From the sequence record PV805632.1: a stretch of DNA of 64,000 bases; one strand, written 5' to 3'. Below are positions 23,066-34,600 of this stretch, piece by piece (within the stretch, counting starts at the first letter, position 1; each line of letters opens with the position of its first letter). The DNA comes from a phage. Under the pieces are notes generated by a model that ran no database searches, had not been told where the DNA came from, and was given only the letters and a program-made list of their open reading frames with translations. The translations under genes and the position numbers were made by a program.

Positions 23066-23296
23066 TCTGGTAGGTGGCTCAGAAGCTGCTGCTAGGTGTG
23101 GTAGTGTTTATAGTCCTGATGCTACTACTGGTCAGGATTATAGACGTGTCGGCTCCATACATAGCTTTTATCATCACTGTCATTATCCTGTGGAAATGCA
23201 GTGGTAAACACGGTGGTGACAAGCCGCCAGAATAACAACAACCGAACCAGTGGATTGGAATACTCTCCCCAGTCCATTGGTTCAACCGAGGCTAAT

Positions 23297-23467
23297 ATGA
23301 ACAAATTTACTATTCACTGGCTCAATGGAATAGTTAGTTCTTTCATGGGTGGGGAACCTGTTGAAGGAAACAAAGCATTCCACATTGATTCAGAAGGCTG
23401 CAAAATCTTAGTACCATACGCTTGGTATAAGAATGGTGAAGTTGAAGCATTGAAAAAGAGCAGTTAA
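23297..23467 (+). CDS. hypothetical small protein
   Basis: ATG 23297 with GAGG 8 nt upstream; the longer track ORF from 23201 lacks an RBS. Confidence 0.4.
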   Translation: MNKFTIHWLNGIVSSFMGGEPVEGNKAFHIDSEGCKILVPYAWYKNGEVEALKKSS

Positions 23468-24525
23468 TATCGTGAAGGGTTCTGTCAGAATCCTTTGAGA
23501 TAGGAACTCCTATCATAACCTTTCTTAACTTAATCTTTGCCGTATGGCACTGACGCTAGGGGTGGCCCCCCATCCGTCAGACAGACTATTTTAAGAATAG
23601 GTTATCTCAGAAAATGTAAAGCAACATTCGGGTTAATCAATGGCCTCTTCTATAGGGGCCATTTCTGAATCTTAGGCTATATCCCAAAGGTTAGTATCTT
23701 TGGGATAAGGCTTCAGATCCCTTATCAAACTAACTGCTCAATGTTGAGTATATTAACTAACCAAGCCCAGTAAGGGGGCGGGAGTTTAATGCCGGTAAGC
23801 ATAAGCCTATCCGTCTACGACATCGAACTGTTAGATCTTACGTGCAACATAGGGTAATGGGAGGATTCGTCCCCTCCCACCTATTATGAACCAATTCGAA
23901 GTAGCACTGATTGATTAGCTGTGGAAGGTAGGCCGATGTCCACAAGCATGGCCCAGAATCAGTGCTACCCCTAATTGGAAGAATTAAGACGGGTCTGGTG
24001 AAGTAGATGGGGTTCGATTCCCTCCGGTGGAGTAATCCACTAGCGTGCTTGGTGCACGAATAAGACTTAGTACTGGTGGTTCGATTCCATCCCCCGTTAC
24101 CCGAAGTCGCCAGGTACTTATGGCAAACAACGAGGTAGTAACGAACTAGTCATTCGTCAAACGCCTCACCTAATTATGAGTCAGCAAGAACGCCTTCACC
24201 TAAACTTAAACAAAAAAGCTTAACGCAATAATTATGTAGGGGTATGTAAGGATTGCGAAGAAGGAGCCAGTTAGAGCCTGGTATGACTCACCTATTTAGC
24301 AGTAACATAGTCCTGATTGCATAGCACTCTAAAGACAACACTGGTAAGACAGTCCAGTGGCTGCTAATGTATAGTTATTCCCCTCGACGGGAATTTCGCT
24401 AGTGAAGGTAACACTTAAAAATCCAAACCTACGTCTTACTACTATCGGGCTATCAACCCACGGTCGCTTAACCCACTGGTGGTAGCAGTTTGACGGCCTG
24501 CCTCGTTGACTGCGTTAAAGTCACT
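23468..24525. other. ORF-free, highly structured non-coding region (candidate ncRNA / degenerate tRNA-like / origin region)
   Basis: no ORF of 60 aa or more on either strand; many perfect inverted repeats; two GGTTCGATTCC motifs; see findings. Confidence 0.5.
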
Positions 24526-24562
24526 AAGTCCCTCGGAGCCGTCACTCTGGGGGACTTTTTTA
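24526..24562 (+). terminator. strong rho-independent terminator
   Basis: about 12-bp stem AAGTCCCTCGGAG / CTCTGGGGGACTT followed by TTTTTT. Confidence 0.65.
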
Positions 24563-24590
24563 TTTGAGAACTACTTATGAGACGTTTTAT

Positions 24591-24743
24591 ATGATTGACC
24601 TAATCTTAACCCCGTATGCCTATGAGGTAACGGATAACCGAGGACGTAAGTCTTTGGTGTTTGCAGGTAGCGTAGCCTATAACAACGCAGTCATGTTTAA
24701 ATACAAACTTAAACCACTCTATGAGGCTAACAATGGAATTTGA
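24591..24743 (+). CDS. hypothetical small protein (50 aa)
   Basis: hand-translated ATG..TGA ORF; overlaps next small ORF (ATGGAATTTGA). Confidence 0.3.
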   Translation: MIDLILTPYAYEVTDNRGRKSLVFAGSVAYNNAVMFKYKLKPLYEANNGI

Positions 24744-24870: not shown

Positions 24871-24947
24871 CAAACAAGTGTAAGGTAGTTTTTACCGAAA
24901 GGTACTGAACTACTTACGTAGTGAGGCTGTAATAGCCAAAACAAAGA

Positions 24948-24969
24948 AAGCCCCTCATTTGAGGGGCTT
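24948..24969. terminator. bidirectional hairpin terminator between plus- and minus-strand blocks
   Basis: AAGCCCCTCA-TT-TGAGGGGCTT with T-rich flanks on both strands. Confidence 0.6.
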
Positions 24970-24975
24970 TCTTAT

Positions 24976-25578
24976 TTATACAGGATTTACTGTTTGAAAT
25001 ACCCTGACAGATACCTTAGTGAGTGTAATAGTTTGTCCACTAACGTTATGCATACCTAATTGTATGCCATTGACCATAAATGGGTCAGTGCTGCCCATGG
25101 TATATGTTGCAAGGTTTACTTCCTCGTTGCTTATATCATTACCCTGGAATTTAGAACTAAAAGCAGAACCCCTTATAGTTGTTCCATTGGGTCGTCTTGT
25201 TTGTGTTCTCCACTCTCTAACTGTCCCATCATCCCCGGCAATACTACCAGTAATCCGTACTACGAAAATTACTTGTGTATTGCCTTCTCTAGCAGGGAAG
25301 AGTAGATTGTTATCTAATATAGTAGTACCAGCAGTTCCTGCCGGATCCTTAGTTAAGCCTTCCAAACTAAAATAATTGAACCAGCTTGTATCAGTGATTG
25401 TCTGGCTTCCAGCCCAATCCCATATATCTAATAAAAAAGGATTTGGCAATTCTTTTGCCAAATCCTCGTCCGTTTTGGATGCAAGTATGCTTTTCCCCTT
25501 GTCTCCGATAAGGGTCATTCCACCCATAACCAAAGGCATTGCATCAAAACCCTGATCGTATTTGTCTTTAATGGTCAT
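24976..25578 (-). CDS. hypothetical protein
   Basis: about 200 aa from the internal Met (MTIKDKYDQ); the first Met of the track ORF lies inside the upstream terminator hairpin. Confidence 0.45.
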   Translation of the reverse strand: MTIKDKYDQGFDAMPLVMGGMTLIGDKGKSILASKTDEDLAKELPNPFLLDIWDWAGSQTITDTSWFNYFSLEGLTKDPAGTAGTTILDNNLLFPAREGNTQVIFVVRITGSIAGDDGTVREWRTQTRRPNGTTIRGSAFSSKFQGNDISNEEVNLATYTMGSTDPFMVNGIQLGMHNVSGQTITLTKVSVRVFQTVNPV

Positions 25579-25605
25579 AAAGTCCCCGTAGATAATAATA
25601 AAAAG

Positions 25606-25630
25606 AAAGCCCACACTACTGGTGGGCTTT
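25606..25630 (-). terminator. rho-independent terminator downstream of the giant ORF
   Basis: AAAGCCCAC-7 nt loop-GTGGGCTTT; on the minus strand followed by a T-rich tract. Confidence 0.55.
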
Positions 25631-31600: not shown

Positions 31601-34600
31601 CAGAATATCTACTGCATCAGTAGGTAAATAACCAGACTTATCAAACTCAACCATCATATCAACAGCAGGTTTCAAATTACCTTCCAGAGCTTTGGTCAGA
31701 TTTTCAGACATAGCTTCACGGGACATTTTATGTACCTTGATGCCCAATGCCTGAGCCAGACCTAACTGGAAGTCAGAGAATGCTTGGCTGTTTTCATTAC
31801 TCAAGTCGATAGTGGAGAAGGTTGGCAGAATTGCTTCACGAACCAGTTTACTGGATTGTGGGTTATTCTTACCAAGCATCTGCATACGACCTACACGGGT
31901 CATGTTGTAACCGTAGTGAATGGGGGTATCCAAACCATTCTCTTGTTCTTTTAGCTGATTAATTAAACCGAACAAAGAATCATATGCCATAGATACCGAT
32001 AAGTTCTTACCTTCCAGAGATTTGGCAGTGTTTTCATTCAGCAAATCAGGATTAAGAGAACCAGCACCCATCAGTTCCAGAATGCCGTCTCGGCCTAATG
32101 CTTCATAGAAGTTAACCATCGGCATGTGTACACGGAACTCCGTAGCCTGTTCAGCTTTCAAAGCAGCTTTCTGTTCCGGGGTATTCCTAACAGCAGGGTT
32201 ACGTAACTGAGTTTGAGCCACGGAAGGAATGTCATCACCGAAGTACGTTTTCTCTTCCGGATTTACCAGCACAGCTTCCTCAATTGCTGTAGGGAAATTA
32301 TTAATAGGGTCTTTATCTGCCAACTTATTAATAGTGTACAAACCAATAGTCTTATTAGAATCCGGGTCAATCTCAGACACATCCAGCATAGTCTCAGTAA
32401 CTGCACCCATCTCGATGAGGGAAGACAGAATCTCTGTAGCCATTGCCACTGGAATACCCTTGGTATAACCCAGTGGTGCATTAGGGTTACGGTTTAAACC
32501 CCAGTAGGATTCAATCTTTTGAGCCAGTGAGTTAGTAGCCTCAATCAGAGTCTGGGCATTCTCGAACTCAGCCAGAATACTTTCTGGTAACAGAGATGCA
32601 TCTACACCAGTAATAGCAGCCACGTCTTTCATATCTTTAATGGCAGCATTCTGTGTAGCAGTCAGTCGCCATTGCAGACCAGCAAGTACAGCAGTCTCTA
32701 ACAACTGGTCATTGAACTTAAAGGTATCTCCATCTTTCTCTACGATGTTAAGTAACTTACCACCTACCCAACGGTTAGCCTCAGTACCTTCTGCAAAACG
32801 TTTACCAACATTTTTATTAGCAAGGAACTTAGCCAGTCGTTCAGACAGAGTAGCCTTCAGAGTTTCCCCAAAGTCCATCAAGTCTTGATAGCGTTCTAAC
32901 ACATCACCTGCGAGAACGTTATTTTCTTTTTGAGTGAACGCTTCAAAGCGAGCAGCAGAAGACAGTGCTTGCTTGATATCAGCCAAAGGAGATTCAGAAC
33001 CAATGGTACGGGACTTAGGTTCTTCCGGTAGGGTAAATGCCTTCAGGAACTGGTTCGGTGTCTTCTCATTGTTATAGACAGGGAACACTGCTTCCATTCC
33101 AGAAAGGGGTTTGCCACCCACTGTATAATCTGCTTTCAGCTGAGCCAGTGATACTTCATCCTTCTCCACGTTGTTAGTGTTACGACCAGTGGTATCTACA
33201 CCAACCAGAATCTGTGCATTATTGGCTTCAACGAAAGACTGAACAGTATTGAATTGTTCAGCAGTCAGCTTCTGATTATCAAACAGTTGCAGAGATACAA
33301 ATGGTTGTTCACTGCCTTTATAGAAGGTAGAGCGAATAGCACCTGTATCCAGGGACATATCACGATACCCATCATGCCCAAATACGTCGGACAGGCTGAT
33401 ATGGTCGCCATTAGAACCAACCACAGTACCATCAGCAAACAGCCATGGACTCTCCCTACGATCACCATACTTATTAAGAGTTTCCTGTGAAATAGTATTT
33501 TCTTTCACATAGGCATCTCTTTCAGATTCAGTAGGTTGCTCGATGGTATCCTCATTAGTGGGGGTAGCATCATCTACAACCGGGCTAGTCTTTTCAGACT
33601 TAGGTACTTTCTCTTCCTGTACAGGTGTAACTTCTGGCTGGGAGAATGTATTACGTACATAGTTCATAAAATCATTACGTGCTTGAGAAGGAGAAGACCA
33701 TACTTCCCGTGTGCTACGTAAACTAAAGATTCGACCTTCAGGAGTCATTACGTAAGGTACATTTGTTTTACCGTACTTAAATGAAGTGAGTACATCTGAC
33801 TTACCAGTAACAGTGCTTTCCCCTGGAATGACAATAGTCTTACCACCAGTAGAGGGAACAGCACGAACACCCTCAATATCCTTACCAAGAGAAATATACT
33901 CTTTACCGTTGTAATCAAAGTACTGACCTATCTGCATATAGGTAGCTTGTTGCTTACCAGTAAACTCAGCAGTTTTCATCTCCGGGCCGTTAGGTACAGA
34001 CGTACTTTCAGACTTAGGCTTAGATACTTTCTCTGGTTCTGACTTAGACTCTACAGTGTTAGGAGCAGTTTTATTGTTTACCACTGGTTTAGCTTTAGAC
34101 TGTACAGTAGTAGTGTCCTCTTGCACTGGTGCAGGGGTTTCATCAACCTGATTCACTGGTTCATTAGTCTGTTGGGACTGAGTGGCATTAAGACCACCTT
34201 GACGGAACTCTTTAACTACCTGGGCAGCTGGCTTGTTCAGACGTGAATCCAACGAGGTAACTTTCACATGAGAAACATTAAGCTCCGGGTAAGCCGTAGC
34301 AAGTGCGTTAGCAATATCAGCTACGGTCTTAGCTTCCAGCGCTACTTGCTGGGCAAACTTAACAGACTTGGTATCATAAGGATTAACACCGAGGCCAGTA
34401 CGACTACGTACCCATTCACGCGTAGGCGTGAGAGCCTGATAATGAACAGACTTATTCTTATCCGCATTCCCCGAAATCAGATGCTCATTCAACGCTCCGA
34501 CCTTATTCTGCATGTGCTGGGCGAACTTCATAAAATCGCTCAGATAAGCGGAGGCCAAATCGAAGTTACCAGAGTTATACGCAGAACGAATGCGTTTCGC

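Follow-up and report, generated by a model that had tools for sequence, protein, structure and literature searches.

A probable tRNA-like RNA with two T-arms and no anticodon in the tRNA island of a G7C-like phage

Clusters of tRNA genes in phages are usually read as sets that supply codons or counter host defences, and the parts that tRNA finders miss are left blank. The tRNA operon of phage T4 also contains rnaC and rnaD, whose products (species 1 and 2) are not tRNAs. These RNAs are processed by RNase P and, to our knowledge, have remained without a known function for about 50 years. A different partial likeness to tRNA is seen in bacterial YrlA RNAs, which are tRNA-like Y RNAs (RF02553), whose tRNA-like domain is defined by a T stem-loop, a closed acceptor-like stem-loop and a D stem-loop (Chen et al. 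2014, PMC4201824). We analysed a 64,000-nucleotide (nt) stretch of phage DNA (PV805632.1; this whole stretch is called the window), and here describe a 114-nt element on its + strand that lies in a gene-free gap at positions 23468-24590. The phage is G7C-like (Gamaleyavirus, Schitoviridae) and N4-like. The element is probably a tRNA-like non-coding RNA (ncRNA) gene that mimics the upper half of a tRNA twice and lacks an anticodon. The best-supported reading is that of a new tRNA-like ncRNA family, in an island that has lost its tRNAs.

We aligned 22 distinct homologues of the element, from Gamaleyavirus, Klebsiella Kaypoctavirus and T4-like phages, and they share a fold of five helices (Table 1). 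The window contains exactly two copies of the T-arm sequence GGTTCGATTCC (24011-24021 and 24078-24088), which lie 67 nt apart on the + strand. A first-pass annotation of this DNA had reported the two copies with the right count and the right position for the first, but its coordinate for the second was off by one. With up to one mismatch allowed, 0.38 occurrences are expected by chance, and two or more were present in 5 of 100 shuffled sequences. Both copies lie within a 24-nt direct repeat (24002-24025 and 24069-24092, 79% identical). The second T-arm, which had already been recognised as GGTGG-TTCGATT-CCATC, is helix 5 of the consensus fold (24075-24091) and shows compensatory changes. The pairing of the 3′ end has to be revised, however. 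GATGGGG at 24006-24012 had been taken as the sole partner of the 3′ strand, but the conserved partner of 24093-24098 is GACGGG at 23988-23993. In the 94-nt element proposed earlier, with a stem formed by 24006-24012 and 24092-24098, only 83% of the alignment cells pair, and one pair is broken in 12 of the 22 sequences, so we rejected this model.

The outer part of the fold is an acceptor/T-arm stack, with the terminal stem, T-arm 2 and then purine-C-C. Inside it, a T-arm, a loop-closed stem, UAG and a D-like hairpin follow one another, which is the order expected of a tRNA whose acceptor end is closed by a loop and whose anticodon end is opened. The UAGC..UUGG of this module is the sequence of a canonical D-arm start. 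Both T-loops are nearly invariant, and both GG dinucleotides (23997-23998 and 24051-24052) are invariant. Purine-C-C follows the terminal stem in 16 of the 17 N4-like sequences. The 3′ end in the window reads ...GUU-A-CC-C, and the genuine tRNA-Ile gene of relatives likewise ends in ...A-CCC. The linker before T-arm 2 has a length of 14-16 nt in all homologues, and no conserved helix forms between the 5′ linker and the 3′ linker. We found neither a sixth linker helix nor pseudoknots: a scan of every pairing of unpaired columns gave isolated column pairs (e.g., 9:17) and no covarying run. When the window copy is folded under constraint, a small hairpin appears at 23994-24007, but it lacks conservation and was rejected.

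Within the five-helix consensus, 99.5% of the 572 pair cells hold a standard pair, compared to 40-57% after a shift of the 3′ partners by 1-3 columns. Both-sided (compensatory) changes occur in 14 of the 26 pairs, compared to 1-4 with shifted partners. None of 500 shuffles matched the observed pairing, the count of compensated cells or the covariation score. At least one pair is compensated in each helix, and the changes occur within clades (UE-S5a, VLCpiP4a, PEi20, CkP1) as well as between them. In helix 1, four of the six pairs change on both sides (G-U/A-U/G-C; A-U/G-C/C-G/U-A; C-G/G-U/U-A), and the second pair of helix 2 is variously G-C, C-G or U-A. Five of the six pairs of helix 3 are compensatory, and its loop varies from 4 to 8 nt. 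Helix 4 has the changes G-C/A-U and C-G/A-U, and helix 5 has G-U/G-C/U-A/A-U and U-A/A-U. Between clades, identity is 48-66% in paired columns, 76-82% in unpaired columns and 81-92% in the T-loops. Stems that diverge faster than loops are a signature of selection on the RNA fold. Given the conserved G-U pairs, such as 24026:24041 in 20 of the 22 sequences, the fold is specific to the + strand, which is also the strand of the upstream genes, of the tRNAs in relatives and of the terminator. Thus, the fold has been kept by compensatory evolution in three phage lineages, and the structured ncRNA that was one of the options in the first-pass annotation is borne out for the T-arm region.

A BLAST search of phage records with 23960-24296 found Gamaleyaviruses, Kaypoctaviruses and three T4-like genera, namely Dhakavirus (VR5, VR25), Kanagawavirus (PEi20, KLB31) and Karamvirus (CkP1). 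The similarity to the T4-like phages is limited to 24003-24093, where it is about 79% and where nothing is annotated. In these phages, the element lies on the tRNA strand of a tRNA cluster, 2-19 nt 3′ of a tRNA-Met. It begins 2 nt past the CCA of this tRNA in PEi20 and KLB31. The order in VR5 is tRNA-Met, element and tRNA-Arg, with the tRNA-Arg starting 10 nt past the terminal stem of the element. We found no flanking protein that is common to the N4-like and T4-like carriers. The element therefore moves as a cassette of about 115 nt, and takes a tRNA slot in the T4-like tRNA operon. Pattern scans of viral contigs (two scans) and of metagenomes (one) yielded a few extra copies, exclusively on contigs of N4-like and T4-like phages. 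There were no copies in a pattern scan of 100,044 species-representative bacterial and archaeal genomes and no matches in 5,426 complete E. coli genomes, and an origin from a host or prophage was rejected on this basis. In all 76 matching GenBank records, the element is unannotated as an RNA, and any annotation there is an overlapping protein call.

Searches for known RNA genes were negative. With default settings, ARAGORN found no tRNA and no tmRNA in the window. Its intron mode, thresholds of 90, 80 and 70%, tmRNA mode and mitochondrial mode returned nothing credible, and the tmRNA mode was empty even at the 80% threshold. At 80%, ARAGORN reported a poor “tRNA-???” of about 96 nt with a two-base “anticodon”, which is the same model that the first-pass annotation had arrived at. 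Rfam 15 gave no matches at the gathering score in the whole window. At E-values up to 10 (searches of 1.45 kb and of 141 nt), the only matches were of 13-17 nt, in a T-arm, to tmRNA and mascRNA models, and the tRNA model (RF00005) had no match in the region. As a positive control, ARAGORN and the Rfam tRNA model both find four tRNAs in the homologous gap of phage N4 (50-77 bits). Ordinary tRNAs at this locus, or neither conservation in related phages nor a transcript from the region, had been named beforehand as results that would speak against the original idea; ARAGORN found no ordinary tRNA, and the element is strongly conserved in relatives. Both outcomes speak for a real feature. The family is missing from Rfam 15, and we found its architecture described nowhere. 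We also found no phage RNA of this kind in the literature, in a search that did not extend to a 2023 catalogue of viral structured RNAs.

We consider 23988-24101 to be probably an expressed, structured tRNA-like RNA gene, with its expression being a prediction. The element would be part of a transcript that also covers the + strand genes 5′ of it and runs to the terminator (24526-24557). RNase P would make the 5′ cut, 3′ trimming would remove trailing bases, the CCA-adding enzyme of the host would complete the end to ...ACCA, and TruB and TrmA would modify both T-loops. These steps follow the established maturation of tRNAs in E. coli and T4. In the elbow of a tRNA, the T-loop docks on G18-G19. 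Because the GG dinucleotides and the T-loops are conserved, we infer that each T-loop of the element docks on one GG, which would make two elbows.

The stable product would mimic the acceptor-plus-elbow half of a tRNA and act in trans. It would titrate or recruit a host factor that recognises tRNAs by their acceptor end or elbow, and would neither decode nor carry an amino acid. Such a role as a decoy or recruiter for a tRNA-reading host factor is a tentative suggestion. More speculatively still, the element could be a “double-elbow” mimic, in which two acceptor-type helices, each stacked on a GG-docked T-loop, are combined in one 114-nt RNA that blocks, saturates or redirects the host factor. 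One possible target would be an anti-phage toxin whose action on tRNA ends is modification or cleavage; another would be an enzyme of tRNA processing. The tRNA-maturation enzymes of the host would stabilise the RNA. Since host factors alone would suffice, unrelated virulent enterobacterial phages (N4-like and T4-like) could trade this self-contained cassette (about 115 nt). Two features, the 24-nt repeat that includes the T-arm motifs and the canonical D-arm start, suggest that the element originated from duplicated or neighbouring tRNA genes. An origin as a tRNA dimer is plausible as the history of the element, not as its present state.

Several other explanations must be weighed. A functional tRNA that decodes but has a highly unusual build (an additional arm or an intron) and escapes the finders is very improbable and is already largely refuted. 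Its appeal lies in an acceptor-like stem, A-C-C and a canonical T-arm within a tRNA island. A T-arm with a UUCRANY loop is in fact present twice (24009-24023 and 24075-24091), the D-like hairpin would show U-UGG if it were drawn as a 4-bp stem with a 7-nt loop, and there is the relaxed-threshold ARAGORN prediction. However, the pair that closes the D-like loop covaries (C-G/A-U), so this loop has 5 nt. The loop of the variable hairpin has 4-8 nt, and so this hairpin is not an anticodon loop either, while just 14-16 unpaired nt occupy the place of an anticodon arm with its 5-bp stem and 7-nt loop. With these three regions accounted for, there is no anticodon loop. ARAGORN in its default, intron, 90%, pseudogene-threshold and tmRNA modes and the Rfam tRNA model, which does find the N4 tRNAs, detect no credible tRNA here. 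Clades differ in their discriminator and in the first three pairs of the acceptor stem, which, under general identity rules, argues against a single aminoacylation identity. Slightly less far-fetched, but still quite unlikely, is decaying junk: the fused remains of two adjacent tRNA genes (a T-arm from one, a D-arm and a T-arm from the other), left by deletions in a fast-changing cluster. The 24-nt direct repeat of the T-arm regions and the D-arm start would fit such an origin, as would the mosaic locus with its many breakpoints and scars, e.g., ACTGGTGGT at 24477. Moreover, tRNA dimers give the order T, acceptor, D, and the YrlA model scores 19.5 bits on one, the junction of tRNA-Ser and tRNA-Thr in N4. 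A pseudogene, however, would not keep 99.5% pairing through 14 compensated pairs, to have stems that evolve faster than loops, or to retain about 79% identity in unrelated phage families. The degenerate or non-canonical tRNA that had been offered as an option is half right, in that this is a tRNA island with several clearly tRNA-derived modules. Selection on the two-T-arm element itself, however, maintains a fold of its own, without an anticodon arm.

The element could also be a processing or stability signal acting in cis, whose tRNA-like fold recruits RNase P and 3′ trimming, divides up the long + strand transcript and sets the ends of neighbouring RNAs. tRNAs punctuate mitochondrial transcripts in this way, and mascRNA does so for MALAT1. 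The transcription unit that contains the element is long and stops at the terminator, and the neighbours of the element are conserved non-coding modules, with short spacers that often come after ...ACC or ...CCA; the acceptor/T-arm geometry is what RNase P reads. We nonetheless regard a cis signal as unlikely, because the T4-like copies sit between genuine tRNAs that already provide cleavage sites, the inner module of T-arm, closed stem and D-like hairpin with its conserved linkers far exceeds what a cleavage signal needs, and the element crosses phage families without its neighbours. A DNA-level element, such as an iteron origin or a recombination or homing site, is scarcely credible, although the region lacks open reading frames (ORFs), contains inverted repeats and short repeats (five CTGGT copies and the near-direct repeat ACGCCTCACCTAA / ACGCCTTCACCTAA, all present as listed in the first-pass annotation), and homing endonuclease genes occur near tRNA clusters in G7C, T4 and Bas92. 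An iteron origin would have at least three regular direct repeats of about 17-22 bp. We found ten direct-repeat families in 23440-24620, each with two copies at irregular spacing. The CTGGT copies are mostly T-stem sequence: the 24073 copy comprises the 5′ stem strand of T-arm 2 and U54, the 24331 copy is in the T-derived hairpin of module E (Table 1), and the 24477 copy is scar-like. With no repeat family exceeding two copies, the iteron idea, which had also been raised for this region, fails. Also, the conserved G-U pairs work on the + strand alone and would be C-A mismatches on the opposite strand, and the T4-like copies lie inside a tRNA operon.

Some observations weigh against the reading of the element as a tRNA-like RNA gene with a function of its own. 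The minimum-energy fold of the window copy alone differs from the consensus fold (-40.3 versus -34.0 kcal/mol). The terminal stem has six covarying pairs and a constant 7:66 mismatch, not seven pairs, and T-arm 1 has four pairs. The bases of the acceptor stem and the discriminator are not conserved between clades, and A-C-C follows the terminal stem in the N4-like copies, but the T4-like copies encode no CC. The family is narrow and the element is accessory, since many Gamaleyaviruses match solely 24101-24296 and lack it. Growth on laboratory hosts thus does not require it, and a partner protein is not evident. Finally, the alignment comprises just three clades and variants within them, so the number of independent compensatory events is modest, and some of the sequences were fetched with patterns that required a T-loop and the UAGC..UUGG motif.

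The 1.1-kb gap around the element is the tRNA and small-RNA island that Enquatrovirinae have between the replication genes and the late region, given that relatives carry tRNA genes at the same position. Such an island consists of + strand tRNA or tRNA-like genes in a non-coding gap, as is the case in the window. It lies after a gp46/gp47-like gene and before a gp48/gp49-like gene or the virion RNA polymerase gene in PhAPEC5, UE-S5a, G7C, Mimir124, KP8 and N4. Among these, Mimir124 and PhAPEC5 are the nearest relatives of the window phage (about 95% identity), and G7C is also close. The homologous gap in relatives holds annotated genes for tRNA-Ile, -Cys, -Thr, -Ala and -Val and a tRNA “OTHER”, and KP8-like phages have five or six tRNAs there. 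The 1.5-kb gap between gp47 and gp48 of N4 (NC_008720) has nothing annotated in the RefSeq record; the four canonical tRNAs that we detected in it are for Asn, Ser, Thr and Pro. By contrast, canonical tRNAs are absent from the window, whose island has lost its ordinary tRNAs. A metagenomic relative (L029) has the same tRNA-free arrangement from 23960 on.

There is no credible ORF in the gap. The first-pass annotation had described it as free of ORFs, and we likewise found no ORF of at least 60 aa on either strand in 23468-24590. The three longest that touch it measure 57 aa (on the - strand, running into the end of the upstream gene), 48 aa and 43 aa. No PHROG family matched any of the internal ORFs that were tested, which have 34-57 aa, whereas the flanking ORFs match phrog_14773 upstream, and phrog_34266 and phrog_17779 downstream. 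A protein-coding reading was rejected on these grounds. For the upstream ORF itself (23201-23467; 88 aa as listed, with a GTG start), the phrog_14773 match is confined to residues 33-88. The true start of this gene is probably an ATG near 23297, giving a product of 56 aa.

The island is built as a mosaic from cassettes, and its breakpoints lie near 23889, 23957-23960, 24095-24105, 24289-24296, 24366 and beyond. One cassette of relatives, with tRNA-Ile(AAT), is absent from the window, where BLAST junctions place its exact site. It is bounded by direct repeats, and a precise insertion or deletion occurred between them. ARAGORN detects the tRNA-Ile in PhAPEC5, UE-S5a and Mimir124. The cassette lies at 2378-2456 in L001 and at 2384-2543 in L002, and that of UE-S5a has two tRNAs. 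G7C has an unrelated insert of 129 nt at this site.

Table 1. Features of the two-T-arm element, of the island around it and of the homologous island in relatives. Positions are those of the window unless a locus (L) is named; CM R1 is the covariance model of the element, which was applied to the collected loci.
Feature	Position	Strand	Basis or remark
Whole tRNA-like RNA element, 114 nt, opening with the terminal stem and closing with the encoded A-C-C	23988..24101	+	CM R1, 133.9 bits
Terminal acceptor-like stem, 5′ strand GACGGG, pairs with 24093-24098	23988..23993	+	Helix 1
5′ linker, with invariant GG 23997-23998 and near-invariant GUAGAU 24003-24008	23994..24008	+	Alignment columns
T-arm-like hairpin 1, GGGG / UUCGAUU / CCCU	24009..24023	+	Helix 2, 24009-24012 with 24020-24023
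Variable hairpin, loop-closed acceptor-like stem, GGUGGA GUAA UCCACU	24026..24041	+	Helix 3, 24026-24031 with 24036-24041
UAG and D-arm-like hairpin CGUGC UUGGU GCACG, invariant UUGG in loop	24042..24058	+	Helix 4, 24044-24048 with 24054-24058
Single-stranded 16-nt linker with conserved CUUAxUA, at the position of anticodon arm and variable loop	24059..24074	+	No helix possible
T-arm 2, GGUGG / UUCGAUU / CCAUC	24075..24091	+	Helix 5, 24075-24079 with 24087-24091
Terminal stem, 3′ strand CCCGUU, then A-C-C at discriminator/C74/C75 positions	24093..24101	+	Alignment
Hairpin-dense leader	23468..23740	+	Alignment of 12 distinct sequences, almost no substitutions; z to -4.65
Module W, non-coding, ends in hairpin GGGAGG AUUCGUCC CCUCCC	23753..23885	+	About 77% identity to phage intergenic DNA
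Long hairpin, 22-nt arms 23891-23912 / 23957-23978, 86% complementary	23891..23978	+	Inverted repeat
Segment D, about 190 nt, non-coding, ends ...CUCACC	24101..24292	+	Hardly any variation among 14 distinct Gamaleyavirus sequences
Module E, terminal stem abutting hairpin CACUGG UAAGACAGU CCAGUG, one inner hairpin	24293..24362	+	Conservation in N4 and Kaypoctavirus
Empty site of the tRNA-Ile(AAT) cassette of relatives	24289..24296	+	BLAST junctions; CCCATT/CCTATT direct repeats
Intrinsic terminator, 13-bp stem then TTTTTATTT	24526..24557	+	Annotated terminator in PhAPEC5 and G7C
69-nt tRNA-like element	L001 1783-1851; N4 L038 3368-3436		CCA end, no anticodon; “tRNA-OTHER” in KP8
127-nt tRNA-like element of relatives, same island	L004 1548-1674		CCA end, no anticodon
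N4 unannotated tRNA stretch	L038 2952-3631 = record 32451-33130		ARAGORN and Rfam tRNA model

We now note properties of the other modules of the island. Fold z-scores reach -3 to -4.7 at 23500-23700 and at 23860. The leader and segment D are nearly invariant in 12-14 Gamaleyavirus sequences that differ by 5-15% elsewhere, and because of this near-invariance, they do not allow a covariation reading. The stem-loops listed in the first-pass annotation are present, including the GGGAGG/CCUCCC hairpin of module W (23859-23878). Relatives of this module are found in unannotated intergenic DNA of about 100 phiEco32-like phages (Gordonclarkvirinae: SU7, LAMP, Bas92) and in one Grimontviridae Salmonella phage. 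Module W is thus a second non-coding module that is common to unrelated phage families. The perfect 12-bp inverted repeat that had been seen downstream of it is also there, and extends to the 22-nt arms of a long hairpin. Mimir124 and PhAPEC5 share the core of this hairpin (23913-23956) in a unit with a different, self-complementary outer stem, and in these phages the outer stem of the window belongs to another unit.

Segment D is found in most Gamaleyavirus records, including many without the two-T-arm element. Module E is 77% identical in N4, where the similarity reaches about 24432, and 87% identical in Kaypoctavirus. Its hairpin, with 6 bp and a 9-nt loop that is not a T-loop, shows compensatory changes (CACUGG/UACUGG/UAUUGG), and the stem matches the T-stem of the tRNA-Ile in relatives. 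The sequences ...CUCACC-UAAUU and ...CUCACC-UAUUU look like unit junctions, in which a 3′ ...ACC is followed by a short spacer. At 24475-24483, ACTGGTGGT is a copy of the 5′ half of T-arm 2 (ACUGGUGGUUCG) without the loop and the 3′ strand, and looks like a recombination scar of another T-arm. The terminator that had been placed at the end of the region is present and, judged by its sequence, closes the + strand transcription unit. Beyond it, at 24880-25630, a 212-aa ORF of the - strand (24976-25614, phrog_17779) is flanked by two very stable hairpins that resemble terminators, one at 24944-24973 (- strand) and a bidirectional one at 25606-25630, with fold z-scores to -8. PhAPEC5, KP8 and N4 have gp48/gp49-like genes in place of this ORF.

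The element adds a covariation-supported RNA family to the well-studied G7C-like and T4-like phages. In its architecture, a tRNA-like shell surrounds a permuted module that is itself tRNA-like; there are two T-arms but no anticodon. It provides a concrete candidate for a role of non-decoding tRNA-like RNAs in phage infection. The same question has been posed for the T4 species 1 and 2 RNAs for some 50 years. In addition, families of virulent coliphages that are unrelated to each other exchange non-coding modules of about 100 nt, at least three more conserved modules are present in the island, and the RefSeq record of N4 can be supplemented with four unannotated tRNAs in the homologous gap.

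Like a canonical tRNA (RF00005), the element has UUCGAUU T-loops, a UAGC..UUGG D-arm start and an acceptor-type terminal stem, which in the N4-like copies is followed by purine-CC. Its location is tRNA-like as well: it shares the strand of the tRNAs in a phage tRNA island and is spaced from neighbouring tRNAs as a tRNA would be. Unlike a canonical tRNA, it lacks an anticodon arm, and its 114 nt include an additional closed stem and a second T-arm. With tmRNA, mascRNA and the 3′ tRNA-like structures (TLSs) of plant viruses, it shares the property of being a partial tRNA mimic around the acceptor/T-arm stack, which in those RNAs is recognised by tRNA enzymes. However, it lacks the tag reading frame and the pseudoknots of tmRNA, and we rejected identity with tmRNA, given that the tmRNA mode of ARAGORN was empty and that the Rfam tmRNA matches cover 13-17 nt of a T-arm. 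In contrast to the plant-virus TLS, it has two T-arms and does not form the 3′ terminus of a genome or mRNA as a TLS does.

The inner module (24009-24023, 24026-24041 and 24044-24058) has its parts in the order found in YrlA, with compensatory changes in each helix. Like YrlA, the element has tRNA-like conserved loop bases and no anticodon loop. However, its ends form an acceptor-like stem that ends in ACC beside a second T-arm, and not a Ro60-binding stem. Reading the sequence for the GNCGAAN0-1G motif of the Ro60-binding helix, we found no G-N-C-G-A-A in the element. Its neighbours are N4-like ORFs of PHROGs 14773, 34266 and 17779, or tRNAs and T4 genes, and no Ro60/Rsr gene is among the flanking ORFs or annotated neighbours, as judged from annotation and PHROG matches and without a Pfam TROVE scan. 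The RF02553 model, despite its score on the N4 tRNA dimer, did not match the element at E-values up to 10 in the 141-nt search. Also unlike YrlA, the element is carried by virulent coliphages, and copies were not found in the bacterial genomes scanned. Without a Ro60 helix or motif, a nearby Ro60 gene or an RF02553 match, membership in YrlA was rejected.

A parallel in context is T4 rnaC and rnaD, in that the element is a non-tRNA RNA gene in a phage tRNA operon, in the same orientation. T4 rnaC ends in a T-arm preceded by ACUUAAUA, and this combination of ACUUAAUA and a T-arm is a short resemblance to the element. Nonetheless, CM R1 matched neither rnaC nor rnaD at E-values up to 10, and BLAST searches with rnaC and rnaD found their own homologues in VR5, VR25 and PEi20, and not the element. 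We rejected homology with rnaC/rnaD because the model does not match them and because VR5 and VR25 carry RNAs of both kinds, and we regard the element as a separate family. VR5 has an unannotated homologue of T4 rnaD (L010 2682-2798; 86% identical) directly 3′ of tRNA-Arg, and VR25 has homologues of both rnaC and rnaD.

The nearest relative in sequence is a 69-nt mini element of the same island, which is labelled “tRNA-OTHER” or “tRNA-Undet” and occurs in N4, KP8, PhAPEC5 and UE-S5a. This element and the 127-nt element each show some compensatory changes, and both lie within a stretch of 370-720 bp that is absent from the window at 23957-23960. The 69-nt element has no counterpart of T-arm 1 or of the closed stem, and its encoded CCA is complete. 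The two RNAs nevertheless share their outer plan, which consists of an acceptor stem, GG, CUAG with a hairpin (CUAGCGU..GUGCAC..ACG), a short linker, a T-arm and, in the 69-nt element, ACCA.

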